From assembly GCA_050950765.1 (NCBI GenBank), contig JBMNIF010000002.1:256001-320000 (forward strand): a stretch of 64,000 bases of DNA, in the 5' to 3' direction. The notes beneath the pieces were generated by a model that ran no database searches, was not told the origin of the DNA, and was given only the letters and a program-made list of their open reading frames with translations. How positions within the stretch are numbered: the first letter of the stretch is position 1; every line of letters starts with the position of its first letter. Source of the stretch: Bdellovibrionota bacterium (lineage in GTDB: Bacteria > Bdellovibrionota_C > UBA2361 > JAAYZI01). The translations under genes were made by a program, and so were the position numbers. Of the stretch, positions 1,788 to 40,900 are shown in pieces.

Positions 1788-2663
1788 TTAAGCTGCTGCT
1801 TGTGCTTGAACGGCAGCAGATCTGGCAGCACGCACCTGTAAAATTTTTTGTGAGCGGGGTTTTCTACGATGAATCTGACGACATTCCAAGATATCACTAT
1901 CATCTTCACCCTCTAAAGGTTTGAAATTCTCTTGAAATATAAGACACATCTCGCGCTGCAATGTTTCTAAAGCTTTTCTTTTCACCCTTGAAATATGGCA
2001 TCGGCTATAACCGAGAGAAACCGCTATATCGATCAGCCTTCGTCCTTGAATGTAGAGTTGAAAAATTACTTCCTGCTCCAACTTATCTAACTTTTTACAA
2101 ACTGAAGTGCTGACCTTTACTAACTCTTTTTTTAATAAAATCTGATCTGGAGTTTCGTTTTCTTTACCGGAAAGTGACTCAACAGCATCAATGGCATCAA
2201 TGACACCTAATGCTCCTCCATATTTACTACTATTATAAAATCTCTCTTCTTCGTTATTTAAAATCGAAATAATATTTCCGTTAGCTGCACCAGAGATACT
2301 TCTTATCAAATTTCCTCGCAGATGATAGAAAAGAAAAGTTATAAAACAAGCTCCCTTAGCAGGATCGAAGCGTGAAACAGCTTCGCATAAAGATAGATCC
2401 ACCACACTATGAAGTTCATCATCATCTAATCTGGAATGCCATTTTTTAAGTATGCTACGCGCTAACTTACGTGCCTTTAAACGATACTCCAAAACCATTT
2501 TTTTGTTTTCGTGCGTTGTCCTTATTCCACAAAGTCCATTTAAAACAGCAACCTTTTTATTTGTCTTAGCCACACTACTTAAGCGCTCGGCATCAGCCAT
2601 TGTCATCTTCAACTTACAACTTTTGACTTCTGACATTACTTCCCCAACTTGCAGCACAACCAC
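1788..2663 (-). CDS. Sigma-70 family, FliA/WhiG-like alternative sigma factor
   Basis: Region 2 (LCEAVSRFDPAKGACFITFLFYHLRG) and region 4 HTH (LDKLEQEVIFQLYIQGRRLIDIAVSLGYSRCHISRVKRKAL). Confidence 0.85.
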   Translation of the reverse strand: MVVLQVGEVMSEVKSCKLKMTMADAERLSSVAKTNKKVAVLNGLCGIRTTHENKKMVLEYRLKARKLARSILKKWHSRLDDDELHSVVDLSLCEAVSRFDPAKGACFITFLFYHLRGNLIRSISGAANGNIISILNNEEERFYNSSKYGGALGVIDAIDAVESLSGKENETPDQILLKKELVKVSTSVCKKLDKLEQEVIFQLYIQGRRLIDIAVSLGYSRCHISRVKRKALETLQREMCLIFQENFKPLEGEDDSDILECRQIHRRKPRSQKILQVRAARSAAVQAQAAA

Positions 2664-3095: not shown

Positions 3096-3890
3096 ATGGG
3101 AAAAGAAGAAGATACGCAGGAAACAGTCCTCTCCATTGAAGAGGCAAATGACTTAATCCTTGAACATCGTGGCTGGGCAGAGAGTATTGCTAAGTCTGTC
3201 GCCCGTTCTTGGAATCTGGATTGGCAGTTAGATGGATTGGATGGTGCTGCTATGGAGGCACTTATTTTTTGTGCACGTAGATTTGATCCTGCTCGGGGTG
3301 TGCCCTTTAAAGGTTATGCTAGAAAACGTATTCATGAAGCAGCGACAGAAGCCTCTCGTCGTTCAAAAGGTTGGCGACGCGGAGGAAATACTTCCGCTCG
3401 CACAGAACGTTTAGCGCGTGAGGTATCCGTAGAGCTCTTTAACATCTTCCCTGAGTTACATGCGGGGCTACTCCCCTATGCTGGAGATGAAGATGCAGAT
3501 CAAGATACTCGCATCGCCTTACAAAGATTATTGATAGGAGCTTCTGTTATCGCCACGAAACAAGGGATTGAAGCAGCCTTGCCGGATGATGCCCTTGATT
3601 TTAAACGCATGATAGAATCGATCTGTTCTATGGAGCCATTACATCAAACGTTAATCTGGAAAGTATATTGGGAAGGATTTTCATTGCGGAGTGTAGCTGG
3701 AGAGTGGGAAACTGATGAACTAAATGTTATCCGTGAACATAAAGTTATTCTGGATTATCTGCAGAAATTTTTTGGCAAGGGGCGGAATACAAAGTGTCCA
3801 AGGATAAGACCTGGATTAAGGGAGGTTGCGGTAAAATTAAAACGACAAGATAATATGGTAGATTTCAGCCAAATAATGACAAAGGAGTAA
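3096..3890 (+). CDS. Divergent sigma-70 (FliA-like) factor
   Basis: Region 2 (AMEALIFCARRFDPARGVPFKGYARKRI) and a degenerate region 4 (MEPLHQTLIWKVYWEGFSLRSVA). Confidence 0.75.
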   Translation: MGKEEDTQETVLSIEEANDLILEHRGWAESIAKSVARSWNLDWQLDGLDGAAMEALIFCARRFDPARGVPFKGYARKRIHEAATEASRRSKGWRRGGNTSARTERLAREVSVELFNIFPELHAGLLPYAGDEDADQDTRIALQRLLIGASVIATKQGIEAALPDDALDFKRMIESICSMEPLHQTLIWKVYWEGFSLRSVAGEWETDELNVIREHKVILDYLQKFFGKGRNTKCPRIRPGLREVAVKLKRQDNMVDFSQIMTKE

Positions 3891-3896
3891 ACCACG

Positions 3897-4250
3897 ATGT
3901 CCAAGAACTCTAAAGATAAAAGCTCAAAAGTAACGGGAATCAAAGCCCCACGTGTCCCCACTGCCATTGAACAACTCAGTGGAGTTTCAAGTGTTGAAAA
4001 AACGCAGAAAACTTCTGCTATCTCTGCTGTTCACGGACTAAGTGGCACATCTAGAACACATTCTATAAACTCCATTACGGCTGCTAATCGAGAGGTGCTT
4101 CACAAAATGGTTCATGAAGAGGCTGATAAACTTTTCGGGAAGACTCAAACACCGAGTCAGAAACGTGAGGTTATTGAGAAAGCAGTTAAGATGGCGATTG
4201 ATGCAGTTGCTATCGAAGAGGAAAACGATTCTTCCTCCAAAAAGAGCTGA
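3897..4250 (+). CDS. Small hypothetical protein, S/T/K-rich N-terminus, helical C-terminus (possible anti-sigma)
   Basis: 6 bp after the sigma gene, with a GGAG RBS. Confidence 0.6.
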   Translation: MSKNSKDKSSKVTGIKAPRVPTAIEQLSGVSSVEKTQKTSAISAVHGLSGTSRTHSINSITAANREVLHKMVHEEADKLFGKTQTPSQKREVIEKAVKMAIDAVAIEEENDSSSKKS

Positions 4251-4323: not shown

Positions 4324-4785
4324 TTATGCGCGCGACTGATAACGGGCTAGCTGCATCCGATGAAAACGGAGCGCATTAGGCGACTCGATGCTGCCACTCT
4401 CTATCTTATCACTTACCTCCCCCAGATAGGTACCAGCAGCGTTGTAGTCACCATTCGATAACAGACTAGCTACAAAGAAAAGAATAACTTCAATTGAATC
4501 AGGACTTAAACGATAGGCCTGATTTGCCGCTTGCAACGCTAAATCATTATTACCATTTTGCAAATATATACAGGTCAATCCCATCCAAGATGGAGCGAAA
4601 TCAGGCGCAACATTAACTAACCCTAACAAGATCGCTTCAGCACGATGCACATCTCCGTTCTCAAGACAGAACCTACCCAATTCGTAAATACTCACCACCT
4701 CCTGCGCTGAATATCCCCCTCGCTTTGTACAGTTTTGCAGATATTTTTCACGATAGATCTCTCTGGTATTACGTCTAAAGTTCAC
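4324..4785 (-). CDS. TPR protein, SycD/LcrH- or YscY-like T3SS chaperone
   Basis: YSAQEVVSIYELGRFCLENGDVHRAEAILLGLVNVAPDFAPSWMGL TPR pattern; GTG 4785 overlaps the upstream TGA; T3SS context. Confidence 0.65.
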   Translation of the reverse strand: MNFRRNTREIYREKYLQNCTKRGGYSAQEVVSIYELGRFCLENGDVHRAEAILLGLVNVAPDFAPSWMGLTCIYLQNGNNDLALQAANQAYRLSPDSIEVILFFVASLLSNGDYNAAGTYLGEVSDKIESGSIESPNALRFHRMQLARYQSRA

Positions 4786-5039
4786 TTTTTCCCCTCTATA
4801 CTGATAGACAACCAATCAAGCACATGCTTAAGCATCGCCTCTTCTGCTAATATTTTTCTGTAATCATCAGAATCAACGGCACCAGCGAAACCCTTCTTCA
4901 TCAGATTTACTTTTTCATACCGTGCAAACATAGAGTTCGACATCTGTTCAAGATCGCTGACAGAACCCAAAACAGGAAGAAGTGCAAGAAAGGGAGATAT
5001 CGAAAAGTTATCCGGCGCTGAATATTTTGATTTTTCCAT
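4782..5039 (-). CDS. Small hypothetical protein coupled to TPR chaperone
   Basis: 85 aa; GTGA stop/start overlap with the TPR gene. Confidence 0.55.
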   Translation of the reverse strand: MEKSKYSAPDNFSISPFLALLPVLGSVSDLEQMSNSMFARYEKVNLMKKGFAGAVDSDDYRKILAEEAMLKHVLDWLSISIEGKK

Positions 5040-5145: not shown

Positions 5146-5772
5146 CTACTCCATCTCTCGTTCCAACTCCTCTCTGGACATCCTATTTTTAAATAAAAAG
5201 AGATACTTTGCACCTAGTAAAGAAGCGCATACTAAACACAACGCTAAAGTAGCAAGAATAGGTAAAGCGCTTTGCATTAAATGGGACGGAATAAAAATTC
5301 CTGTTTCCGCTCGAGTAGTGAGCATCTTTTTTATAATGCCGACACCTACTAAAAAAACTCCGTATGTTACACCACAAAGGCACACGATTTCTAAACAATC
5401 TCTAATAAACAGCCGCAAAATCTCTGTTAAAGAAAATGTTTTTTCAAAAGGATTGACTCTCTGCATTGTCGGCACAATAAAGTTAAGGCGAAAAAGAAAC
5501 TTTACTTGAAACAATATAGACAATATTACAGAAAAAAATACTACTAACGCCGGAAATAACAATAATTCAACAAAAGTCCAAACCTTCTCTCTTGCAGCCG
5601 TTAAGGTGTTTGGAGGTGAAAATATCTGCATTAAATCTCCACGGATCCAAAAAAAATATCCGCACAGTGCCATAAAAATAAGGCAAGTAGTAGCAAAGTG
5701 AGAATAAGAAGTGATTCCACTTTCCCTTAAATTTTCAAGTTTTCTCTCTGTGGGCCATTCTTCTTTAAGCAT
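5146..5772 (-). CDS. SctU/FlhB-family export protein, membrane domain only
   Basis: EEWPTERKLENLRESG N-terminus, QRVNPF motif, 4 TM segments; ends at KNRMSREELEREME with no NPTH domain. Confidence 0.8.
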   Translation of the reverse strand: MLKEEWPTERKLENLRESGITSYSHFATTCLIFMALCGYFFWIRGDLMQIFSPPNTLTAAREKVWTFVELLLFPALVVFFSVILSILFQVKFLFRLNFIVPTMQRVNPFEKTFSLTEILRLFIRDCLEIVCLCGVTYGVFLVGVGIIKKMLTTRAETGIFIPSHLMQSALPILATLALCLVCASLLGAKYLFLFKNRMSREELEREME

Positions 5773-6422: not shown

Positions 6423-6662
6423 TTAACTCAAGCTCTTTGTCGCCAAATCCATAATCCAACTTACAACAGGGCTACACAAAAAATATAAGATTACCAAAAC
6501 AGTGATAAGTCGTAGTGCATAACTCGCACTTTGCTCTTGAACACTCGTGGCTGCCATTAAGGTTGAGGCGATAGTACCAACTAAAAGAACACCGATTATT
6601 AACGGGAAATTTATTAAGAAAAGTATCCTCAAAGCTTCCTGAATCAATTCATGAACTTCCAT
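6423..6662 (-). CDS. SctS/FliQ export protein
   Basis: PLIIGVLLVGTIASTLMAATSVQEQSASYALRL matches the FliQ QAxTQxQEQTL pattern. Confidence 0.85.
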   Translation of the reverse strand: MEVHELIQEALRILFLINFPLIIGVLLVGTIASTLMAATSVQEQSASYALRLITVLVILYFLCSPVVSWIMDLATKSLS

Positions 6663-6677: not shown

Positions 6678-7313
6678 TTAGAGATAACCTGAGATTAATT
6701 TTTCTGAAAGTAACTGCCAACCATCAATGGCAAAAAAGAGTAAGACTTTCAGAGGTAGCGCCACAAAGTTATGTTGTATATTGGTAGCCCCTAACAGCAA
6801 CAAAACATTAGCCACAATCAGATCAAGCACAAAGAAAGGGATTAGTAACAAGAAACCGATCTTAAAAGCTTCTTTTACTTCTGTAAAAAGATAACTCGTC
6901 ACTAGGACAGCAAAGGTAGTATCAGAAGTAAGGGTTACCTCTGCTGTTCCTCCGCTTTGATCTGTAACCTCCGAGCCTTTTACGCCCTTTAATTTTTTTG
7001 CCAACTCGGTAAAACGTTCTAACGTTTTTGGCTCCGTATACTTTGTAAGAATTGGAGAGTATTTCTGATCCATTTCTGAAATACTTTTTAAAGGGGTAGT
7101 AAACAACTTCTCCAAACCACCAACGCCTTCAAGTTGCGGCGCAAGGATCATCATAGAGAGAGCAAAAGAGATAATGACCAATACTAACCCCACTCCGCTA
7201 CCATAAAACCCCAAGCCATAACGTAAAATGCTAAATGTCGTTACGCACTTGACGAAGGCACTAAAAAAGAAGATGACGATGATAGCTATAAGATACGGTT
7301 GTAGTGTTTCCAT
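6678..7313 (-). CDS. SctR/FliP export protein
   Basis: FVKCVTTFSILRYGLG; TEVKEAFKIGFLLLIPFFVLDLIVANVLL; LPLKVLLFFAIDGW; no FliP signal peptide, which is SctR-like. Confidence 0.9.
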   Translation of the reverse strand: METLQPYLIAIIVIFFFSAFVKCVTTFSILRYGLGFYGSGVGLVLVIISFALSMMILAPQLEGVGGLEKLFTTPLKSISEMDQKYSPILTKYTEPKTLERFTELAKKLKGVKGSEVTDQSGGTAEVTLTSDTTFAVLVTSYLFTEVKEAFKIGFLLLIPFFVLDLIVANVLLLLGATNIQHNFVALPLKVLLFFAIDGWQLLSEKLISGYL

Positions 7314-7445: not shown

Positions 7446-8474
7446 TTAACAGACGCTAATAACTAAGCTCCCTTGATAGGAGCGTAAAATAGCCTCTCCC
7501 ACTTTTTCGTTATTAACCACAATGGAAACCTTATCACTAACACGGATATTCGTATCAAAGGATGCTCCAACCTGTGCGACTTCAGCAGTCATCCCCGGTA
7601 CAAGTTGTGTTATACCGAATTCAAACGAAAGTTTCGTAGCACCTGCAGGTATTTTAACGGACGGAGGTGTTGTCGCCACAGTTTCTACTACAAAATTATT
7701 ATTAACGATCCCTAAGCGTGCTGGTAACCACGCCTTGTCATTAGCAATTAACGTTACGGAATCAGAAACTGGTATCTCAATATCATAAAAGACACCCGAC
7801 TTTAAGTATTCAGATAACATGGCAGGTGGTACAGTCAGATGCCCCACCTCTACTCTAACATTTGTTGGAGCAATTTTCGTCCCGATAGTTGAATGCAGCT
7901 GCCTACGCCACAATCCATCCATTTTCTCGAGCATAATCTTGCCCATCGTGATCCAGATAGTGATAGGTGTGCCGTTTACGTTTAACTGTAATTTAACGCC
8001 TCCGATCCCCCTGACAGAATGCGGATCTATATCGGATTCGAACTTGACAAGAGAAGACTCCGGCCCCGTCCATGATAACGCCAAACTTGAGATAAGGCGC
8101 ATCGCCAAATACTCCAAAACAACCTCCCTTGCTTTATTGCGAGCTCCAAGGATGATCATTTCAAGTAATGCCACAGCTGAATCATCTTCTAAAAAAACAC
8201 ACATCGGTTCATCATCGATCGATCCAGTAAAACCGTATTGAAAATTATGATTGCCACCGATAAAAGGTTTTGTCTCGACTAGAGAAAACTCCACTCCTAG
8301 TGAATGCGCTAATGGCTGCCACTGCATAGCAAAACCTGGAAACCATTTTTCTGGAGAACACCGCAAAAAACCGCAGGAATAACGCACCTCCAACGGATCA
8401 TATCTCCGCAGCAGCTTATTCGGCTTCCATGGATTCAATTTAACTTGATTATTACCCTGCGCACTATCTTGCAA
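7446..8474 (-). CDS. SctQ/FliM-like C-ring protein with SPOA-like C-terminal domains
   Basis: C-terminal KVSIVVNNEKVGEAILRSYQGSLVISV resembles SpoA; directly upstream of sctR. Confidence 0.6.
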   Translation of the reverse strand: MQDSAQGNNQVKLNPWKPNKLLRRYDPLEVRYSCGFLRCSPEKWFPGFAMQWQPLAHSLGVEFSLVETKPFIGGNHNFQYGFTGSIDDEPMCVFLEDDSAVALLEMIILGARNKAREVVLEYLAMRLISSLALSWTGPESSLVKFESDIDPHSVRGIGGVKLQLNVNGTPITIWITMGKIMLEKMDGLWRRQLHSTIGTKIAPTNVRVEVGHLTVPPAMLSEYLKSGVFYDIEIPVSDSVTLIANDKAWLPARLGIVNNNFVVETVATTPPSVKIPAGATKLSFEFGITQLVPGMTAEVAQVGASFDTNIRVSDKVSIVVNNEKVGEAILRSYQGSLVISVC

Positions 8475-8491: not shown

Positions 8492-8722
8492 CTATTCTAG
8501 CTCACTAAGAGCTGCCCTTAACGCCGTCCCGATAAAAACCATTCGCAATTCTGGCGACTGCGCCGCCAGATCCAAAGCCGCTTTTTGTAAAACTTCACCA
8601 TTAACAGTATCGCTTTTTAAATAAACCGCCGCCTCACGTCCGTCCAGCAAAACAGCCACAGCAACTAAAGCACGTTGTTTAGCTGGCAAAGCCCTGAACC
8701 GTTTTGCATCCGTATAATCCAT
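8492..8722 (-). CDS. Small helical protein between SctJ and SctQ (SctK position; weak FliG-N resemblance)
   Basis: 76 aa with RBS; LPAKQRALVAVAVLLDGREAAVYLK. Confidence 0.55.
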   Translation of the reverse strand: MDYTDAKRFRALPAKQRALVAVAVLLDGREAAVYLKSDTVNGEVLQKAALDLAAQSPELRMVFIGTALRAALSELE

Positions 8723-8737
8723 AGGATAAATCCTTTA

Positions 8738-9598
8738 CTAAACGACACTTTTCAGATCTGATTCATTTGAGTCAATATCATTACCATTTTTCTTGCGTAC
8801 ACTATATCTAAAATTAGCAAGTAGATAACCCAAAGTAGCACAAATAAATCCACTTAATAAAACTGCCGCAAAAAAGGTCATTATTAAACCGTATTGATCC
8901 CCCTCTACAACGTTCCAAAAGAGTAAGGAAACTAGAGGCACCTTTACGATCTCTCCGTTTTTAAGAGTAACTCCATTTACCAAAACTTCCGTCTCTTCTT
9001 GTACGGTCGAGATAACTTTTACTTTTTCCAGCGGGATATTCGGAAGAACCAGCTGCACGAGTTGCTCAATATCTTCCTGACTAAGAGCATCTTCTTTGCG
9101 CAACCGAACAATGATGGCAGCACCCTCTGAATCTGCCATCACAGACCTCTGTCTGACTATGGCTTTAGCCGAAATCACACCGGCATGGTTACTGAACAGA
9201 TCCTCAATCTGCACAGCCAGTGCTCTATCTGCACGCAGAGCTTCGATCTCTTTCGAATTCGAAGAAAGAAACCCACCTTGAGAAGAGAGGTATTTTAAAG
9301 AGGGATCCTCTTCTTCCGGCAAACCGTTATTATCCAAGATCTGTACAGCTTCTAAATATTTATTATGCTTAACCAAAACATGATAACCGTCAGACGATTT
9401 TCGTCCGCTCTTTTCAGCCGTAGCAGGGATGCCTTGAGCGCTCAAGACTGCAATGATTCTATTCGCCTGTTTATGCGAAAGCCCTTCGCCTGTAACTGAA
9501 ACCTCATTACAGGCGCAGAGGAAGAACGCCATCAACGGCAATAGAATATAGCGTACAGAATTTAATTTCATTATCATAAACCCGCTTTTACTTTTCAC
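8738..9598 (-). CDS. SctJ/YscJ/PrgK inner-membrane ring lipoprotein
   Basis: Lipobox FFLCAC; GLSHKQANRIIAVLSAQGI; AVQILDNNGLP; GVISAKA; C-terminal TM. Confidence 0.85.
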   Translation of the reverse strand: MKSKSGFMIMKLNSVRYILLPLMAFFLCACNEVSVTGEGLSHKQANRIIAVLSAQGIPATAEKSGRKSSDGYHVLVKHNKYLEAVQILDNNGLPEEEDPSLKYLSSQGGFLSSNSKEIEALRADRALAVQIEDLFSNHAGVISAKAIVRQRSVMADSEGAAIIVRLRKEDALSQEDIEQLVQLVLPNIPLEKVKVISTVQEETEVLVNGVTLKNGEIVKVPLVSLLFWNVVEGDQYGLIMTFFAAVLLSGFICATLGYLLANFRYSVRKKNGNDIDSNESDLKSVV

Positions 9599-11003
9599 CT
9601 ACATAAGGGATAAGTGTTACAAGAAATTCGACATCACCAAAGCGTACCCAGTCGCCATTTTCCAAAATGACGAGCTCCTCTTCTTTCTGATACGTATTCT
9701 CTCCACGTCGTCTGACGAAAATACCCCTATCACTCATCAGATCGTGCAATCTTAAGCCGTCTTCCGTACTAACCATCACCATGGCGTGCGGTGTAGAGAT
9801 GCTTTCATCCTCAAGGATTAAATCCGTACCTTTCAAGCTGGTACGCGTAATAAAAAACTTCCCTTCGCGTAGCTCGATCCCCTCTCCCGACGGAGTATTA
9901 TAACTGACAAACCAACCAAACAATCTACCCTTTTTAGAAGGTGCACGTTGCGGTGTCTGATCTTTTTTCTGAAATGGAGCATTCTGCTTCCTATCTTTAC
10001 CTTGTTGTGAAACGTTTTTCTGTTGTTTCTCTCTTCTTTCAAAACGTTTCTTTTCTTCACTTTCATTTTCTTCATACCTAGCAACGCTCTCTTTTTCAGA
10101 AGCACCTGACCTGCCTTCCTTTCTTGACTGTTGTTCAGATCTTTGTTGCTTATCAGGATTTGAGCTCCTATTATCTCTACGTCGTCTAGCTGAACGGGAC
10201 GTTCTCTCTGGCGTTTGTTGAACCTCTGCCGCTATCTCAGGAATTTCAAATTCAACATCTTCCACAACGCTTTCTTGAGACGACACTACATCTTCAATCT
10301 CTTCAGAGCTATCATCCCCAAGATCTTCAACAGTGACCTCTTCCTCTTCTTCTCCAACATTAAAATCGAAAGGTCCTACAAGCCCCCCTTCTACTTCATT
10401 AACTTCATAATTCACCACTTCTTCAGCACTATCATCCTCAACGGCAGACGCGGTTTCTACAAAACCACTTTCAGGATCTGATCTTACCTCAGAGACAACT
10501 CCACCGTAATCAAATCTGGTTTCAACATCTTCCACCTCTCTCGGTTCAAAATCAGCATATCCTTCGGGTTCTTTTGACTCTTCCTCTTGAGCGCCTGCAA
10601 ATTGAGGTGTTTCATCTTCAGCACCTATCGCTACGATACTATCATCTTCCATCTCCCCTTCTGAATCATCAGGGATTTCAACCTCCAGCTCTTCAATATA
10701 AGCACTAAGGGGATCATCCAACTGCATGGGGTCATCATTACTTACATCAGCCACCTGCTGAGTAGCACTGGCCACTTCATCTTCTCTGATTCGATCTCTG
10801 GTTTGTTCTAATTCTGCATCTCCCGCTGTGGACATCGTACGTTGTCGCACCCTAGCGGAAGGTTTCTGCGCAGGCTCCTCCGGTCGTTCGGAAGCAGAAT
10901 CTAAACTCGCTCCGCACATCCGACAACGAGTTGAGACTGCCGGTATTAAACTTCGACAAGATGGACATCTCACAAAGGTCAACTCATTATTATCTGTAGC
11001 CAT
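9588..11003 (-). CDS. Zinc-ribbon, long acidic linker, C-terminal FHA-like domain protein
   Basis: CPSC...CRMC; E/D-rich middle; ILEDESISTPHA...DLMSDRG...GDWVRFG. Confidence 0.75.
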   Translation of the reverse strand: MATDNNELTFVRCPSCRSLIPAVSTRCRMCGASLDSASERPEEPAQKPSARVRQRTMSTAGDAELEQTRDRIREDEVASATQQVADVSNDDPMQLDDPLSAYIEELEVEIPDDSEGEMEDDSIVAIGAEDETPQFAGAQEEESKEPEGYADFEPREVEDVETRFDYGGVVSEVRSDPESGFVETASAVEDDSAEEVVNYEVNEVEGGLVGPFDFNVGEEEEEVTVEDLGDDSSEEIEDVVSSQESVVEDVEFEIPEIAAEVQQTPERTSRSARRRRDNRSSNPDKQQRSEQQSRKEGRSGASEKESVARYEENESEEKKRFERREKQQKNVSQQGKDRKQNAPFQKKDQTPQRAPSKKGRLFGWFVSYNTPSGEGIELREGKFFITRTSLKGTDLILEDESISTPHAMVMVSTEDGLRLHDLMSDRGIFVRRRGENTYQKEEELVILENGDWVRFGDVEFLVTLIPYVGEK

Positions 11004-11042: not shown

Positions 11043-12434
11043 TTAAAATATTGCTCCACATAAAATAAACAATAAGAATATTAACAACGCATTGAGCAGT
11101 ATCATTATAAAAATGAACAACGCTTTTTTCGGCAGCGACAAAGCATTAAAGTACCGCTCCAAATCTTCTATTTTAACGAACCCTCTACCCGTGTTAAGCA
11201 TACTTTCCACCGTGTTTCTTGATACACGCGCACGTTGCATTTGTGGTGGTTGCAGAGAAGTCTCTTCCATAAAGCTTTCTGTTAATCCAACCTGCTTCTT
11301 TGTTTTTTCGACCTTAACTTCATTTTCTACAAAAGCATCTGCCGAACCGTTAGCATTCTTAAACTTCTCTTCCTGTTCTTTATTAAAACAGATCGCCACC
11401 GTTAAATTACCACCGAAGTTTAAAACTTTGGCTTCACCATCAAGCTCTAAAGTATGACCTTTCTTTAAGATACCGCCGTCATAAACGGTTCCGTTAGTGC
11501 TGGAATCTTCGACTGTCGTTATACCTGTCTGACTAAGAGAAACTGTACAGTGCCGCCTTGAAACGTGCGGAGCTCCTAACCACAGATCGCTACTAGGCTC
11601 TCTACCGATAGTGACACTTCCATCAACCGGCAAAACCAAACGTGCTGGTCTAGCCACCTCAGACATCGATAATAAGATCGGGTACCTTTGCAACGATTGT
11701 TGCGGAGCAACTTTTTCCACTTCCTTGTTGATGATTTTTTCCAAACCATCTTGAGAAACTACACCGTATATCGAAGTTTGCCCCCCTAAAAAGATAGGTA
11801 CATTTGGTTCTACATTAACACGCCCTGAGATCTGTTGATTGTGTACAAAAGTTCCGTTTGTTGAACCGAGATCTTCGATCCAAAACCTTCCTTCTTCAAA
11901 ACCTATACGTGCATGCTTGCCCGAGATATCCGCACCATCAAGTCGTACCGCACATTTATTAGAGCGCCCAATATAAGCTGGTTGATCTGGTGAAAAAGAA
12001 ACGACTATCGGAGAGGCTCCTGCTACAACAACAGCTGGGAACTCCGGAGTATCTAAAGCACAAGCCTGCCGCAATATCCGCACTCCAGCACGGTCTGGTG
12101 GTTCTCCTGCTTTTACCGCTAAGTCGGGATCCAATGAAGTCACTGTTAATTGCAGATTAGCAAGTTTTAATGAAGTAGATCCGTTAATCGCTCCATGCGG
12201 TATTTCAGGGATAGCGTTGATGTCGTTTGAATTTACCTTATCTAGCGTTTCAAGCTTGCAACGAAACTTTCTTCCGACACACTTCGTCAAACGGAGTTGA
12301 TAATTAAGATCTTTCATATCTTCTATATCAACGTGTGCTTCTTCAGAAGCACCGATCAAGGCTTGTGGACGACGCACAAGTATCATCATGGTTTGGGATA
12401 AGCCATCTTGAAAAGCTATTTCAAGAGCGAACAT
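11043..12434 (-). CDS. Tandem FHA-domain protein with C-terminal TM (SctD/CdsD-like cytoplasmic part)
   Basis: IGRS...ISGKHA...DLGSTNGT and IGRE...VSRRHC...DSSTNGT; terminal hydrophobic helix. Confidence 0.8.
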   Translation of the reverse strand: MFALEIAFQDGLSQTMMILVRRPQALIGASEEAHVDIEDMKDLNYQLRLTKCVGRKFRCKLETLDKVNSNDINAIPEIPHGAINGSTSLKLANLQLTVTSLDPDLAVKAGEPPDRAGVRILRQACALDTPEFPAVVVAGASPIVVSFSPDQPAYIGRSNKCAVRLDGADISGKHARIGFEEGRFWIEDLGSTNGTFVHNQQISGRVNVEPNVPIFLGGQTSIYGVVSQDGLEKIINKEVEKVAPQQSLQRYPILLSMSEVARPARLVLPVDGSVTIGREPSSDLWLGAPHVSRRHCTVSLSQTGITTVEDSSTNGTVYDGGILKKGHTLELDGEAKVLNFGGNLTVAICFNKEQEEKFKNANGSADAFVENEVKVEKTKKQVGLTESFMEETSLQPPQMQRARVSRNTVESMLNTGRGFVKIEDLERYFNALSLPKKALFIFIMILLNALLIFLLFILCGAIF

Positions 12435-26035: not shown

Positions 26036-26872
26036 CTATTTTGCTATTTTTAAAACTTTATCTTGAACTCGTTCCCAAGCGAGATCTAACTGATAATCGA
26101 TCTCCCCTGCTGAGGTCTCCACAATACAACCAGCTTTAATCGTTGGATCGGCCACAAATTGCCAGTTTTCTTGAAATCCCTTAACTGAATTGCCGACTCC
26201 AACAAGGTTGATAAATTCAAAATCCTGAGGACTAACTCGAATAGTTTTTACTTCTGCCGTTCCTCCCAATGCCACCGCTTTATTGATAATATCAACGATG
26301 TATTCGGGGTTAATTTCAACAGCATCATCAATAATTTTCTTTGAGATAGCGAGCGCTAGGTCAAGAGTTTGCCTCTCGATAGTTTTTAGATTTTCTTCTA
26401 TCTGTTTTTGAATATCAGAGAAAACTTCCTGCATTTTCTGTTTATAGATCTCATCCTGCTCCTGCAACTTTGCATTCATTTCAGCAGAAGCTACGGCATA
26501 ACCTTCATCATATGCCTCTTTTTTAACACCTTCTAACTCTGCTTCAGTTAAGGTTGTTGTCACTATTTCAGGTTCTTTACTCTTTTCTTCTTCGTCGTGT
26601 TTTTGATACGCCAACTCCTTTGGTAAATGCCAACGCACTTTTGATTCTATTGGAGGGAGACCACCGAAGTCTTCAAACATCGGATCCACTATTCCCTCAG
26701 ACCCTGCGACAACATCAAACTGAGTCGGCAAAAAATCTTCCGACAAATGCACTTCTCCGATCACTGGCCAAGAAGCATCTTGATACTCCGTCGGTTGATA
26801 GGTCGTTTGAGTAAGACTAAGATCCACTAAGTCTTCTTGTTCCTGTATTTGCTCTGATTCTTGATGATCCAC
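26036..26872 (-). CDS. fliH: Flagellar assembly protein FliH
   Basis: AYDEGY, LALAISKKII, IRVSPQD, DPTIKAGCIVETSAGEID. Confidence 0.85.
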   Translation of the reverse strand: MDHQESEQIQEQEDLVDLSLTQTTYQPTEYQDASWPVIGEVHLSEDFLPTQFDVVAGSEGIVDPMFEDFGGLPPIESKVRWHLPKELAYQKHDEEEKSKEPEIVTTTLTEAELEGVKKEAYDEGYAVASAEMNAKLQEQDEIYKQKMQEVFSDIQKQIEENLKTIERQTLDLALAISKKIIDDAVEINPEYIVDIINKAVALGGTAEVKTIRVSPQDFEFINLVGVGNSVKGFQENWQFVADPTIKAGCIVETSAGEIDYQLDLAWERVQDKVLKIAK

Positions 26873-26928
26873 GTAATGTTCTCCGATTAGATATTTCGTT
26901 TCAAAAGCAGATCTTTACTTACAAAAAT

Positions 26929-28581
26929 TTACATTCTTCCATCATTTAACCAATAACGGATCAAGAGTGCCGCCTGTTCTGGATTCTCTTTAACCATCTT
27001 CGAGTTTTCAGCCATAATTTCATTTAACTGATCCATATCAACACGTTGTTCAATTTCAGGAATCTTCGTGCGTTGTCTTTCCGCCTCAAGCTCAGCTTCC
27101 AACTCTGCAATACCCGTAGGTAACAAACGTGTTAAATCGATCTCCGCCTCAGTCGGTGTAGTCAGGTAGTTAATAAACGGTTTAATAACAATAACTAAAA
27201 ATCCGAAAAAAAGTAGTAGCGGAACTACATACGGCAAGATCCTATTTGCCCAATGCCACCACTGTTCACTACTGCTCCAAACCTCTTCAAAGTCCACAGG
27301 TTTTGTAGAGAACGGTACATTTTCAACTGTCACAACATCACCGCGGGAAGCATCATAACCAACGGCACTTTTTACCAATGATTCAATCTGTGCCAACATC
27401 CCCTCATCTAACGGTTTATAAACAGTCTTGATATTTTGACCTGCGGCATCAGTGACGTTTTCATAATTACCGTCAACACCTACTGCTACTGAAAGATTAA
27501 TCAATCTGCCGCGTGGTGCCGATACTTTTGTCACAGCACGTGAAACTTCATAATTTTTTAACATCTCTTTTTGTGATGATTTACTTTCATCAGATCCAGG
27601 AGGTGTAATTAGATCTGGATCATTACTAAGATTTGAAATCACACCTGGAATCCCGCCACGTTGTGAAAAGCCCGTTCCACGTTCTATACTTCTTTCCGAA
27701 CGTACGACTTGACCACCTGGATCGTAGATTTCTTCTTCTCTTTCATTAGCAGAGAAATCCAAATTCGCTGTAACACGTGCAATGATTTTTTCAGGACCAA
27801 GCACCTTCGACAACATCTGTTCTATCTGACGCACATAGCCCTTTTCTAAAGCAGTTTTGTATTGTAAGCGTGTGGCTTCTGCTACAAGCCCCTCCTCTTC
27901 ATCTTCATCAGGTGTGAGGAGATTCCCGTACATATCAACGATGGTCACATTCTCAGGAAGCAGCCCCTCAATAGAACCCGCTACAAGATTGGTAATACCT
28001 TTTATCTGTTTTTTTCCCAACTCAACACCTGGACGTAATGTTAACATTACAGAGGCGGTTGTCTGATTCTCTTTCTTTGAAAAAACCGACTTTTCAGGTT
28101 TGGCGATAGCTACTCGTGCTGAATTAACTGCATCCATAGCCTCAATTGTTCGTTGTAATTCACCTTGCACGGCACGAGTCCAACGGATCTTCTCTTCAAA
28201 TGTGGTGGTTCCTAAATTAGTCACATCAAAGAGTTCAAAACCTACCTTGCCTCCTTTCGGCACACCTTCAGCCGCAAGTGAGATTCTCAATTCATGTACG
28301 GCTTCCGGTGGAGTGATTGCGATCGTACCGCCATCTCCACGAATCTGATAAGCTATCTTCTGTTCCTTTAAGCGCTCAATAACTGCAGCAGAATCTGCCG
28401 GACCTAAATCTGTAAAAAGCACGGCATAACCAGGACGACTAGCGATATTTGAAACGAATACAATCCCCGCCACAGAACCTATAATCAGTAACGGATAGAT
28501 TATTTTTTGCAAAAGCGGCATCTTGAGATACCCCTCAAAAGCCTTTCCTAATGCTGCTCCTAAATCAATTTTCCCTGCCAC
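26929..28581 (-). CDS. fliF: Flagellar M-ring protein FliF
   Basis: VGFELFD, RAVQGELQRTI, ASVML, NYEVSR, AVGYDASRGD, C-terminal NPEQAALLIRYWL. Confidence 0.93.
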   Translation of the reverse strand: MAGKIDLGAALGKAFEGYLKMPLLQKIIYPLLIIGSVAGIVFVSNIASRPGYAVLFTDLGPADSAAVIERLKEQKIAYQIRGDGGTIAITPPEAVHELRISLAAEGVPKGGKVGFELFDVTNLGTTTFEEKIRWTRAVQGELQRTIEAMDAVNSARVAIAKPEKSVFSKKENQTTASVMLTLRPGVELGKKQIKGITNLVAGSIEGLLPENVTIVDMYGNLLTPDEDEEEGLVAEATRLQYKTALEKGYVRQIEQMLSKVLGPEKIIARVTANLDFSANEREEEIYDPGGQVVRSERSIERGTGFSQRGGIPGVISNLSNDPDLITPPGSDESKSSQKEMLKNYEVSRAVTKVSAPRGRLINLSVAVGVDGNYENVTDAAGQNIKTVYKPLDEGMLAQIESLVKSAVGYDASRGDVVTVENVPFSTKPVDFEEVWSSSEQWWHWANRILPYVVPLLLFFGFLVIVIKPFINYLTTPTEAEIDLTRLLPTGIAELEAELEAERQRTKIPEIEQRVDMDQLNEIMAENSKMVKENPEQAALLIRYWLNDGRM

Positions 28582-38524: not shown

Positions 38525-40900
38525 TTAGTAATCGTACTCCATCTTTTCCCAAGCTAGATCTCGTTTTTTAGCTTCTTTATCAGTAACGATATCTTTCAAT
38601 AAAGTTCGTCCAAGTTTGGCATAAACTTGATCTAGTGTCATAGCTCGTCCATCGGGAGTTAGTGGATCTAAGAAATCAGGATGGAAGCGCATCATATGTT
38701 CAAGGACTGCCCTATCATGATCTGACTTTGAAATAATTGACCAGACATTACGTCCGATCTCACAAAAATCGGTAATATTCCACTCCAACATATTATTAAT
38801 GTAAAGCCCGATCTGTAACATCTCTTCCGGCGCAGGTGGTCTATCGAAACCGTAAGTACCACCACTGTAACGCATACGATCTACAACACCGATTAAGTTC
38901 GAAATCAATTGCGGATCACAATGATCCTTGAGAATCTTCTTCTCCAAATCTGCATTAAGGTAGGTAAATTGAACTGGATGAATACGTCTCAATAAAGCAT
39001 CATTTAAGTTTCGGATAAAGTTTTTAGTAAAGATCAGTAGGAGATTATCCGTATTAGCATCGATCGGAGGACGCGACTCTGGAAAAATTGTAGCATCCTG
39101 AATTGGACCTAAAAAGAAGGTATCAATTGCAGTATCGACTTTATCTATTTCATCGATTAAAAGGACAACAGGTTGGTTGTGCGATTTTAGAAAAGCTCTG
39201 GATAAAATACCTAGATTAACCATCTCCTCTTTTGCAGTAAACTTACGACCTGCCATAGCATTTGCTATGCCCATAATGCTAGGCACCTCTATCAGGTGTT
39301 GCGTATTCATACCTGCATAACAACTTAAACACATAAACTCAGCACCGCAGATCTTCGCCAAGCTTTTAGCCAAAAAGCTTTTACCGCAACCTGTTGGCCC
39401 TTCTAAGAGCAACGCTCTAACACGCTCAGTTGGAGTATTTAAAATTAAGCAAACCTGTGTAGCTAAAAATGGTAGGCATTGATACTTAACTTCTGCTAGC
39501 CGCTCTATTAACTGATCGGGAGTCCCTACATTTACTAAGCTGACTCGTTCCGGTTTATAAGCGTGTTCGCGGGCTTCATCTTCGGGATCATCAACGATAT
39601 TACGCAACACTATTCGCCCTAACTTGCCATAAACTTCATCTAGTGTGAGCAACCTTCCGTTAGGTCTTAACGAATCGTGATACTTGGGGTGATAGCGCAG
39701 CATTAATTCCAAGACGAACCTATCAGATTCACCTTTTGCCAAAAGATACCAAACATTTCTTCCAACGAAAGAAAAATCAACGATATCCCATTCCAACATC
39801 TGCCGCACATATCGTGCAACTTTCAACAACTCTTCTGGAGCAGGGGGTCGTTCAAATCGATAAGATCCGTCACCGTAACGCATGGTATCTGCAATCCCAA
39901 CTAGATTTTCAATCAAACGTTCATCACAGTGCGGTTTTAAAACTGCTTTTTCCAGATCTGAATTTAAATACGTCATTGCCACTGGGTGCAGACGACGCAG
40001 CAGCGCATCATTTAAGTGACGTTCATAGTTCTTCGTAAAGATCAGTAATAAATTATCGGTATTAGCTTCAATAGGATCGCGCGACTCAAGCCAGATACGT
40101 GCATCTTGAATAGGTCCAAGGAAGAAGGTATCAATACCGACTTCAACTTTATCAAGCTCATCGATCAGAAAGATAACTGGTTTTTCTTGAGACTTGAGGA
40201 ATGCTCTCGAGATAATACCGAGATTCATTAGCTCCTCTTTTTCTCCAGCGGCACGCCCTGTCATAGCATTAGCCATAGCAAGCGTTGACGGATATTCAAT
40301 CAGATGTTGAAGATCCATCCCTGGATAGCACGTTAAACACATCAGTTCGGCACCCGTGATCTTTGCCAAACACTTTGCCATAAAGCTCTTACCACAACCT
40401 GATGGGCCTTCCAGCAAAATTGAACGCACACTTTCAGTTGGGGAGTTTAGTAGTAACGCCACCTGTGCAGCATTAAACGGCAAACACTGATATCCAACAG
40501 CCTCCAATTTTAATGCGAGTTCTTCCGGAGTACCGACATTAGTTAAGCCGACCTTTTCAACGACGTATTCCTGCTCAAACTTTTCATTACGAACGGCAGC
40601 ACCTGCTCTAGCTTTGTAGATATCATCAGAGTAACCACCACGACGAAAATCTTCATCGTGTTCATCATACTCATCGAACTCTACTAACGGATAATCATCT
40701 TCATCTTCATCACTTATAAAACCGTCCGTATAGTTCTCATCATCCTGTGTGCCATTCCAATCATCTTCAAAAATCAATTCTTCTGTATCAATCTCATCGT
40801 CTAATTCTTTTAACGAAGAATTTTTAGCCTTTATTTTGTTGAGAGATTTAACCTCATCAACTTTTTCAAAACCCCTTTTCAAACCATTTTCACCAGACAT
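38525..40900 (-). CDS. Tandem-duplicated MoxR/CoxD-like AAA+ ATPase with acidic N-terminus
   Basis: Two copies of LLEGP(S/T)GCGKS, LIDE(L/I)DK, LNDALLRR and RPPAPEE. Confidence 0.85.
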   Translation of the reverse strand: MSGENGLKRGFEKVDEVKSLNKIKAKNSSLKELDDEIDTEELIFEDDWNGTQDDENYTDGFISDEDEDDYPLVEFDEYDEHDEDFRRGGYSDDIYKARAGAAVRNEKFEQEYVVEKVGLTNVGTPEELALKLEAVGYQCLPFNAAQVALLLNSPTESVRSILLEGPSGCGKSFMAKCLAKITGAELMCLTCYPGMDLQHLIEYPSTLAMANAMTGRAAGEKEELMNLGIISRAFLKSQEKPVIFLIDELDKVEVGIDTFFLGPIQDARIWLESRDPIEANTDNLLLIFTKNYERHLNDALLRRLHPVAMTYLNSDLEKAVLKPHCDERLIENLVGIADTMRYGDGSYRFERPPAPEELLKVARYVRQMLEWDIVDFSFVGRNVWYLLAKGESDRFVLELMLRYHPKYHDSLRPNGRLLTLDEVYGKLGRIVLRNIVDDPEDEAREHAYKPERVSLVNVGTPDQLIERLAEVKYQCLPFLATQVCLILNTPTERVRALLLEGPTGCGKSFLAKSLAKICGAEFMCLSCYAGMNTQHLIEVPSIMGIANAMAGRKFTAKEEMVNLGILSRAFLKSHNQPVVLLIDEIDKVDTAIDTFFLGPIQDATIFPESRPPIDANTDNLLLIFTKNFIRNLNDALLRRIHPVQFTYLNADLEKKILKDHCDPQLISNLIGVVDRMRYSGGTYGFDRPPAPEEMLQIGLYINNMLEWNITDFCEIGRNVWSIISKSDHDRAVLEHMMRFHPDFLDPLTPDGRAMTLDQVYAKLGRTLLKDIVTDKEAKKRDLAWEKMEYDY

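Follow-up and report, generated by a model that had tools for sequence, protein, structure and literature searches.

The role of the cleavage of SctU/FlhB has long been debated. To our knowledge, the cleaved domain of SctU counts as a universal component of type III secretion.

In Salmonella, a stop at residue 258 of FlhB or the loss of residues 270-383 was reported to result in FliK-independent late secretion with a block of early substrates, an effect which according to the accessible text needs loss of Fluke and overexpression (Chevance 2026, PMC13344023). The same source argues that removal of FlhB's C-terminal domain is itself the switch. For Xanthomonas HrcU, the available part of PMC3040844 describes that deletion of residues 265-357 impaired secretion and abolished pathogenicity. 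The T3SS* of Myxococcus xanthus is, in the accessible descriptions, needed for prey lysis and recruited by the Tad machine, and the available text of a 2025 review restricts the co-occurrence of Kil and T3SS* to the Cystobacterineae. A literature search limited to the literature outside subscription journals and supplements yielded no description of a natural membrane-only SctU or of a Tad-SctV-Sct cluster; neither is described in the accessible portions of PMC9163089, PMC13200544, PMC10469934, PMC11509652, PMC7688988 and PMC12248157.

Results

The window, i.e. the whole stretch of 64,000 nucleotides that was analysed, is part of a genome (G000, 94% complete) with three FliP/SctR, three FlhA/SctV and three FlhB/SctU proteins, and in addition two FlhX-like genes, two type III ATPases and flagellins. 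The FlhB of the flagellar gate is full-length, and the flagellar set is separate and groups apart from the system of the window SctU, which we refer to as system C; the third system is called system B. In the window at 26036-28581 fliH directly follows fliF, with no fliG between them.

An earlier note on this DNA, made from the letters alone, had described sctU as a clean truncation with no GDP or NPTH continuation after the stop and the next gene about 100 bp on. All of this was borne out. With its 208 aa the protein comprises an intact SctU membrane domain and ends before the GDP linker and the NPTH domain. Its C-terminus is ...KNRMSREELEREME-stop, an ending also written RMSREELEREME; no GDP or NPTH was present downstream of the stop in any of the three frames, and 106 bp separate the stop from the next ORF. 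Of the 335 positions of PF01312 the protein covers 3-219 with an E-value of 1e-18 and 68.2 bits (cut-off 24.4). TIGR01404 scored 62.9 bits versus 48.2 bits for flhB, short of the TIGR01404 cut-off of 358, and a profile search aligned the SctU profile to FlhB residues 8-233 with an E-value of 4e-20. Thus the four-helix membrane domain homologous to FlhB_TM is present, while the whole-protein SctU score is not reached and the cytoplasmic alpha/beta domain is missing. Because the switch features (GDP, NPTH, cytoplasmic domain) are lacking, we do not file the protein as a switch protein; it is homologous to SctU and would probably serve as the gate subunit.

The position of the stop was the same in all seven members of the 90% cluster, six of 208 aa and one N-terminally cut fragment, and contigs of four runs from four studies, one of which may be the source of this DNA, spanned it without indel or substitution. 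Comparison of two strains showed that 9 of 15 changed codons were silent. A frameshift or read-through was rejected on the basis of the downstream frames, which contain no GDP or NPTH here and at the ortholog loci. An assembly artefact, which the earlier note had considered as a possible refutation, is excluded by the unchanged stop in independent assemblies.

An AF2 model of the protein (pLDDT 93.8) consists of four long helices, with residues 5 and 198 bridged. The top Foldseek match was FlhB (6S3L chain K; probability 0.96, TM 0.48, E 0.3); a wide structural search returned generic helical matches only, with a best Z of 7.0. Among 146 sequences, conserved columns were found in the N-terminal arm (P7, L15, R16, G19, S24), in the gate loop between helices 2 and 3 (Q89 95%, F92 89%, R105 83%) and at the start of the linker (F192, R197, M198, E202, E206). 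The helix 2-3 loop aligns with FlhB without a gap. E5 aligns with E11 and E206 with E230 of Salmonella FlhB, so that the truncation falls just past the glutamate matching E230; an acidic residue occupies this position in 121 of 137 sequences tested. In the accessible text of Kuhlen 2020 (PMC7064499) the N-terminal arm, the helix 2-3 loop and the first linker turns lie under the gate and matter for secretion, and a genetic interaction of E11 and E230 in Salmonella FlhB is cited. Judging from sequence and model, the 208-aa SctU looks like a selected, minimal gate subunit.

The earlier note had asked whether orthologs end alike, and had seen in a full-length SctU of close relatives a second possible refutation. 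A search with the single protein matched 18 of 41 genomes of the order. The complete orthologs, found in 15 of the 40 other genomes, are 26-34% identical and all end 4-12 residues past an RM[ST]xxE motif. In a profile search of 1.84 billion representatives at 50% identity the best 150 matches were all short (181-254 aa, median 218), with NPTH in 0/150 and GDP in 0/150; NPTH was equally absent from the 49 SctU copies of system C loci. Some SctUs have shrunk further to 192-205 aa, where even the RM motif is gone. The named relatives are mostly MAGs of Bdellovibrionota, Oligoflexia or Deltaproteobacteria; the phylum comprises 124 genomes, all listed under one class, presumably GTDB class UBA2361. 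The syntenic SctU of sister orders measures about 247-290 aa; its end lies 8-16 residues past a degenerate GDP and short of NPTH, whereas the SctU of this order ends before the GDP-equivalent. Because the sister-order SctU stops between GDP and NPTH, the loss of the switch domain falls early within the class, and a further trimming, of the linker, followed in this order. The comparison of these sequences confirms that the truncation is ancient and not a recent pseudogene.

A quick tree separated flagellar FlhB (support 100) from the system C copies both of this order (93) and of the sister orders (84). The system C branches are long, and the tree supports these groupings without ordering the deeper branches. 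The closest full-length match, P0006 of Myxococcales, had no system C neighbours in the 4 of its 32 loci inspected. Around full-length SctU genes related to P0006 (L148, L150) no large type III cluster is visible. A plasmid search gave SctV/FlhA matches only, which were about 34% identical.

Table 1. Genes of the system C cluster in the window.
Feature	Position	Strand	Features and evidence
Second sigma-70 family factor, cluster-linked	1788..2663	-	syntenic
Sigma-70 family (FliA-like) factor, cluster-linked	3096..3890	+	syntenic
Conserved 117-aa protein after sigma factor	3897..4250	+	syntenic; no informative family match
TPR protein resembling type III chaperones	4324..4815	-	SctY E 1.2e-6, LcrH/SycD E 7e-4, both below cut-off
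Conserved all-helical 85-aa protein downstream of sctU	4782..5039	-	helical model, no significant PDB match
Membrane-only SctU, 208 aa	5146..5772	-	N-terminal arm, four long helices, gate loop, first linker turns
SctT-like, shortened, highly diverged, 207 aa	5785..6408	-	assigned by position
SctS	6423..6662	-	PF01313 E 3e-11; slightly better on fliQ
SctR, degenerate methionine gasket	6678..7313	-	PF00813 E 4e-32; yscR 106.7 vs fliP 94.6 bits
SctQ-like C-ring protein	7446..8474	-	PF01052 E 2.6e-6
Conserved 76-aa protein between sctJ and sctQ	8492..8722	-	syntenic, no family match; may resemble the FliG N-terminus
SctJ-like inner-membrane ring lipoprotein	8738..9598	-	PF01514; TIGR02544 E 1.6e-21, below cut-off
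Zinc-ribbon and FHA protein	9588..11003	-	PF16697/PF00498; syntenic
Two-FHA membrane-anchored protein, like cytoplasmic part of SctD	11043..12434	-	PF00498, PF16697; syntenic

The genes around sctU are listed in Table 1. For SctU, SctR, SctJ and the linked SctV the Sct models outscore the flagellar ones, all below curated cut-offs; SctJ takes the place of FliF and the context is non-flagellar, which sets system C apart from a flagellar export apparatus. The injectisome core of SctR, S, T, U, V, J and Q is present, with SctT recognised weakly and SctV by synteny in relatives. The SctT-like protein of the window had no match in Pfam or NCBIfam; two of three sister-order genes at this position pass PF01311, and in a profile comparison it was weakly similar to the C-terminal half of these genes' products (E 0.003, probability 10%). 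SctT went from about 280 to about 205 aa in this order. The gasket window of SctR contains 0-1 Met in 46/46 system C sequences versus 2 in 4/4 of system B, the sole flagellar copy that was scored also having just 1.

In G002, G056 and G063 a single co-oriented cluster runs from PP2C, FHA, kinase, CpaE, CpaB, TadA, TadB, TadC and SctV through a kinase-like gene, two FHA genes, SctJ, the 76-aa gene, (SctO-like), SctQ, R, S, T and U to the 85-aa and the TPR gene. The Tad-SctV half of G000 lies on contig C3 at 601265-616592 (L073); this Tad operon includes PP2C, FHA, a Ser/Thr kinase, two CpaB genes, SctV and a kinase-like protein. The SctV linked to system C keeps the charged motifs of the FHIPEP region, and its closest solved structure is YscV. 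At L102 (G047) the TPR gene comes just after CpaE/kinase; tadBC, sctV and the Sct genes are missing from this locus and are perhaps located elsewhere.

Neither a CpaC/RcpA (Tad) secretin nor SctC was found in G000; the two secretins of the 94% complete genome pass the cut-off of the GspD or PilQ model. The system C cluster showed no gene for a needle, rod, ruler or ATPase; a needle, rod or ruler that is shared or very diverged is conceivable. An SctO-like gene was not found in G000 and is kept in sister orders. Three type III ATPases appeared in 1 of 91 genomes of this order versus 17 of 33 sister-order genomes; the scoring covered no more than 12 candidates for nearly every genome. There is one non-flagellar SctN for two systems in this order; in sister orders there are often two.

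Among 64 system C loci, with some genomes counted twice, SctU was detectable in 49. Eight loci (L040-L042, L044-L046, L048, L085) carry a clean deletion of sctRSTU, by which sctQ adjoins the 85-aa gene, while sctJ, sctQ, the 85-aa gene, the TPR gene and the Tad-linked SctV remain. All five deleted genomes that were tested show neither a third FliP nor a short SctU, and all five keep the Tad-linked SctV. In one clade (L045, L055, L059, L091) a 240-aa putative lipoprotein is encoded between sctQ and sctR; it persists in L045 despite the loss of sctRSTU.

The 85-aa gene is adjacent in 62 of the 64 loci and better conserved than SctU. Its product is a possible substrate of the TPR chaperone. The candidate assignment as SctX had no support from family, Atlas, PDB-sequence or fold comparisons and is a lead only. 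Its reading as the missing switch domain was rejected (FlhB_CC profile probability 0.05; PF01312 in 0/28 members), and a likeness of its last helix to the last helix of FlhB was not supported by profile or fold. The TPR gene is single-copy in 39 of 41 genomes, and a sister ortholog matches LcrH/SycD at 7e-10. For the 117-aa protein anti-sigma is a guess; FlgM was dismissed, as no family match was obtained. Elsewhere in the window, at 38525-40900, a 791-aa protein with two tandem similar AAA-type ATPase modules is encoded.

Full-length, split at the cleavage site and membrane-only are the three SctU/FlhB classes of G000, and they recur in sister orders. The SctU of system B (C5:53342-54214) ends at VIVVE, exactly where NPTH would start, and an FlhX gene (C5:49844-50128, L075) is located 3.2 kb downstream. 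The two genes are linked in at least 31 of 41 genomes and adjacent in three; a GAF histidine kinase usually lies between them. System B thus appears to be a genetically split switch. Its genes are scattered (C1:16252-21917, L072; C5:55824-57281; C3:100225-102224). The SctV of system B is short (622 aa) and matches the Chlamydia PRK05910 model over most of its length. The loci further contain SctJ, a FliO-like, an SctI-like (E 4e-5) and a needle-like 96-aa gene (Atlas score 0.89, a lead only). The needle-like and rod-like genes are single-copy and located with system B, to which the SctL/SctN pair may belong as well. System B is kept in non-flagellated genomes.

A search of the genome for stand-alone FlhB_C proteins, proposed in the earlier note, was successful insofar as two FlhX-like proteins, both of 94 aa, were found, but neither is tied to the SctU of the window. 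One belongs to system B and the other probably to the flagellum. The second FlhX (C3:236785-237551, L076) is accompanied by a very conserved gene of 150-190 aa in 16 other genomes; of the 18 loci fetched, 16 show it beside this unrelated gene and the other two were system B loci, and in sister orders it is often near flagellar genes. In complete match lists it is absent from all six genomes that have no full-length FlhB (G032, G050, G052, G055, G067, G073), all of which keep the short SctU. G032, G040 and G073 (94%, 82% and 90% complete), each with a short SctU, gave no FlhX match. On the other side, genomes of this order in which the short SctU is well conserved commonly carry the second FlhX. 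The window SctU lacks the helix and the strand on which an FlhX-like domain docks; it ends about 37 Pfam positions before the strand preceding NPTH (219 vs 256), which the C5 paralog reaches. No FlhB_CC-like ORF was present in the 64 system C loci. Hence the suggestion of a separately encoded C-terminal domain found no support for the window gene, and the split-gene idea fits the paralog on C5 instead. There are two FliK-domain matches in the genome, both outside the system C cluster; one 614-aa protein with a FliK-like C-terminal domain (C2:214071-215915, L145) is encoded near secDF and is distinct from flagellar FliK.

Discussion

The machine without a switch, which the earlier note had offered as one of two readings, is supported. 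We lean slightly towards the view that a working membrane-only SctU wraps the SctR/S/T gate in a needle-less type III core that is assembled jointly with a Tad pilus. Where there is no filament to be measured, the switch would have been useless and the domain would have been lost. An early mode serves no purpose without a filament, which would account for the missing domain; a single fixed mode of the gate and docking of substrates at SctV are then to be expected. The gate would be locked in a state that other systems reach only once the cleaved domain is removed. Substrates would dock at SctV, perhaps on the TPR chaperone, and would then pass to the periplasm or the pilus, with timing set by phosphorylation and pilus assembly. 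By analogy to Kil/T3SS* of Myxococcus the role might be contact-dependent. Several points speak against a working, switch-free gate: the Salmonella alleles acted late-only just with Fluke lost and overexpression and retain more linker than the 208-aa SctU, the comparable deletion in Xanthomonas HrcU impaired secretion, the gate seems to erode (short SctT, weak Met gasket, long branches, loss of sctRSTU in 8/64 loci), its own ATPase and stalk are probably lost, and no Tad secretin was found.

The strongest competitor, to which we assign a smaller though substantial share, is a gate that does not export in this order. SctU would then act as a structural collar within a scaffold of ring and gate, which would seal, position or signal for Tad; SctV, perhaps as an ion-conducting ring, would be what matters, and the gate would be lost stepwise. 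Some lineages do without the gate, so that a function as scaffold or in signalling has to be taken seriously: where sctRSTU is wholly lost, sctJ, sctQ, the 85-aa and the TPR gene are kept, the deleted genomes hold on to the Tad-linked SctV (5/5) without a third FliP or short SctU (5/5), and the probable loss of ATPase and stalk as well as the 192-205-aa SctUs without RM motif point in the same direction. Yet SctU is detectable in most loci (49/64) with its gate-contacting residues conserved. Moreover, NPTH is already gone in sister orders, although SctT is of full length there, an SctO-like gene is kept and a third ATPase often occurs. The loss of the switch thus dates from a stage at which the machine still looked more complete.

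Provision of the switch domain in trans by a separate FlhX is improbable. The genome does carry two FlhX-like genes, the second one occurs in most genomes of the order with a well-conserved short SctU, and the accessible text of PMC3040844 describes that the cleaved domain can act in trans in Xanthomonas and Helicobacter; however, FlhX is encoded at none of the 64 loci, three genomes (G032, G040, G073) keep SctU with no FlhX match, the second FlhX is missing along with full-length FlhB in 6/6 genomes, and the docking helix and strand are absent. We consider it even less probable that the 85-aa gene took over the job of the lost domain, a proposal suggested by its adjacency in 62/64 loci and its conservation: the protein is unrelated in profile and fold, and its retention where sctRSTU is deleted indicates that it does not depend on SctU. 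Practically no weight remains for an assembly error or recent pseudogene. Only the short length would fit, but the stop is identical in independent assemblies, the best 150 of 150 relatives are short and 9/15 changed codons are silent.

A broader proposal builds on the switch-free working gate, and we regard it as rather doubtful in its entirety: the class would run a single Tad-plus-type-III machine, whose gate is permanently 'late' by deletion of the SctU switch and delivers chaperoned proteins into the periplasm or the pilus so as to contact other cells, plus a second system in which an sctU split into two genes replaces autocleavage. If true, both key switch experiments would exist in this class in natural form. 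Three states of SctU occur together in one lineage: full-length, divided exactly at the cleavage site, and lacking the domain. The deletion ends at the residue holding linker and N-terminus clamped together, which would make this the smallest SctU that selection keeps and gating separable from switching. A single locus joins Tad and type III genes outside Myxococcus, for which a physical connection of both machines is a proposal only. Should the gate simply be in decay, the locus would still be a record of a type III core being stripped down and reused.

Compared with FlhB/SctU (PF01312; PDB 6S3L; accessible text of PMC7064499) the window SctU has the same four-helix domain, a gate loop of equal length, the N-terminal arm and the RM.R.E start of the linker, but it is without the GDP linker, the NPTH site and the C-terminal domain. 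Because these parts are missing, there would be no docking site for early substrates or a ruler. The Salmonella FlhB stop-258 and delta-270-383 alleles (PMC13344023, as far as accessible) likewise form a gate without the cleaved domain, and the mutants are locked late and FliK-independent; they are laboratory mutants with about 25-35 more linker residues, whereas the loss described here is natural and class-wide. Stand-alone domains of the FlhX/HP1575 type (TIGR00789; Wand 2006 as cited in the available part of PMC3040844) resemble the two 94-aa proteins and the split SctU of system B. FlhX/HP1575 is described there as a spare part for full-length FlhB, while in system C neither a linked FlhX nor a docking segment is present.

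Kil (Tad-like) and T3SS* of M. xanthus (mxan_2434-2464; PMC12075869, PMC12428579, PMC3459982, in their accessible parts) share with system C an inner-membrane export core that appears to be without secretin, needle and translocon, a Tad machine and FHA proteins, a comparison that rests on published descriptions and not on M. xanthus sequences. The gene content of system C corresponds to the secretin- and needle-less export core of T3SS*. In M. xanthus, according to the same sources, Kil and T3SS* occupy separate loci and T3SS* has its own ATPase, whereas here the genes form one cluster in another phylum. Thus Kil/T3SS* of M. xanthus may serve as the nearest working analogy to the Tad-linked type III core with a membrane-only SctU.
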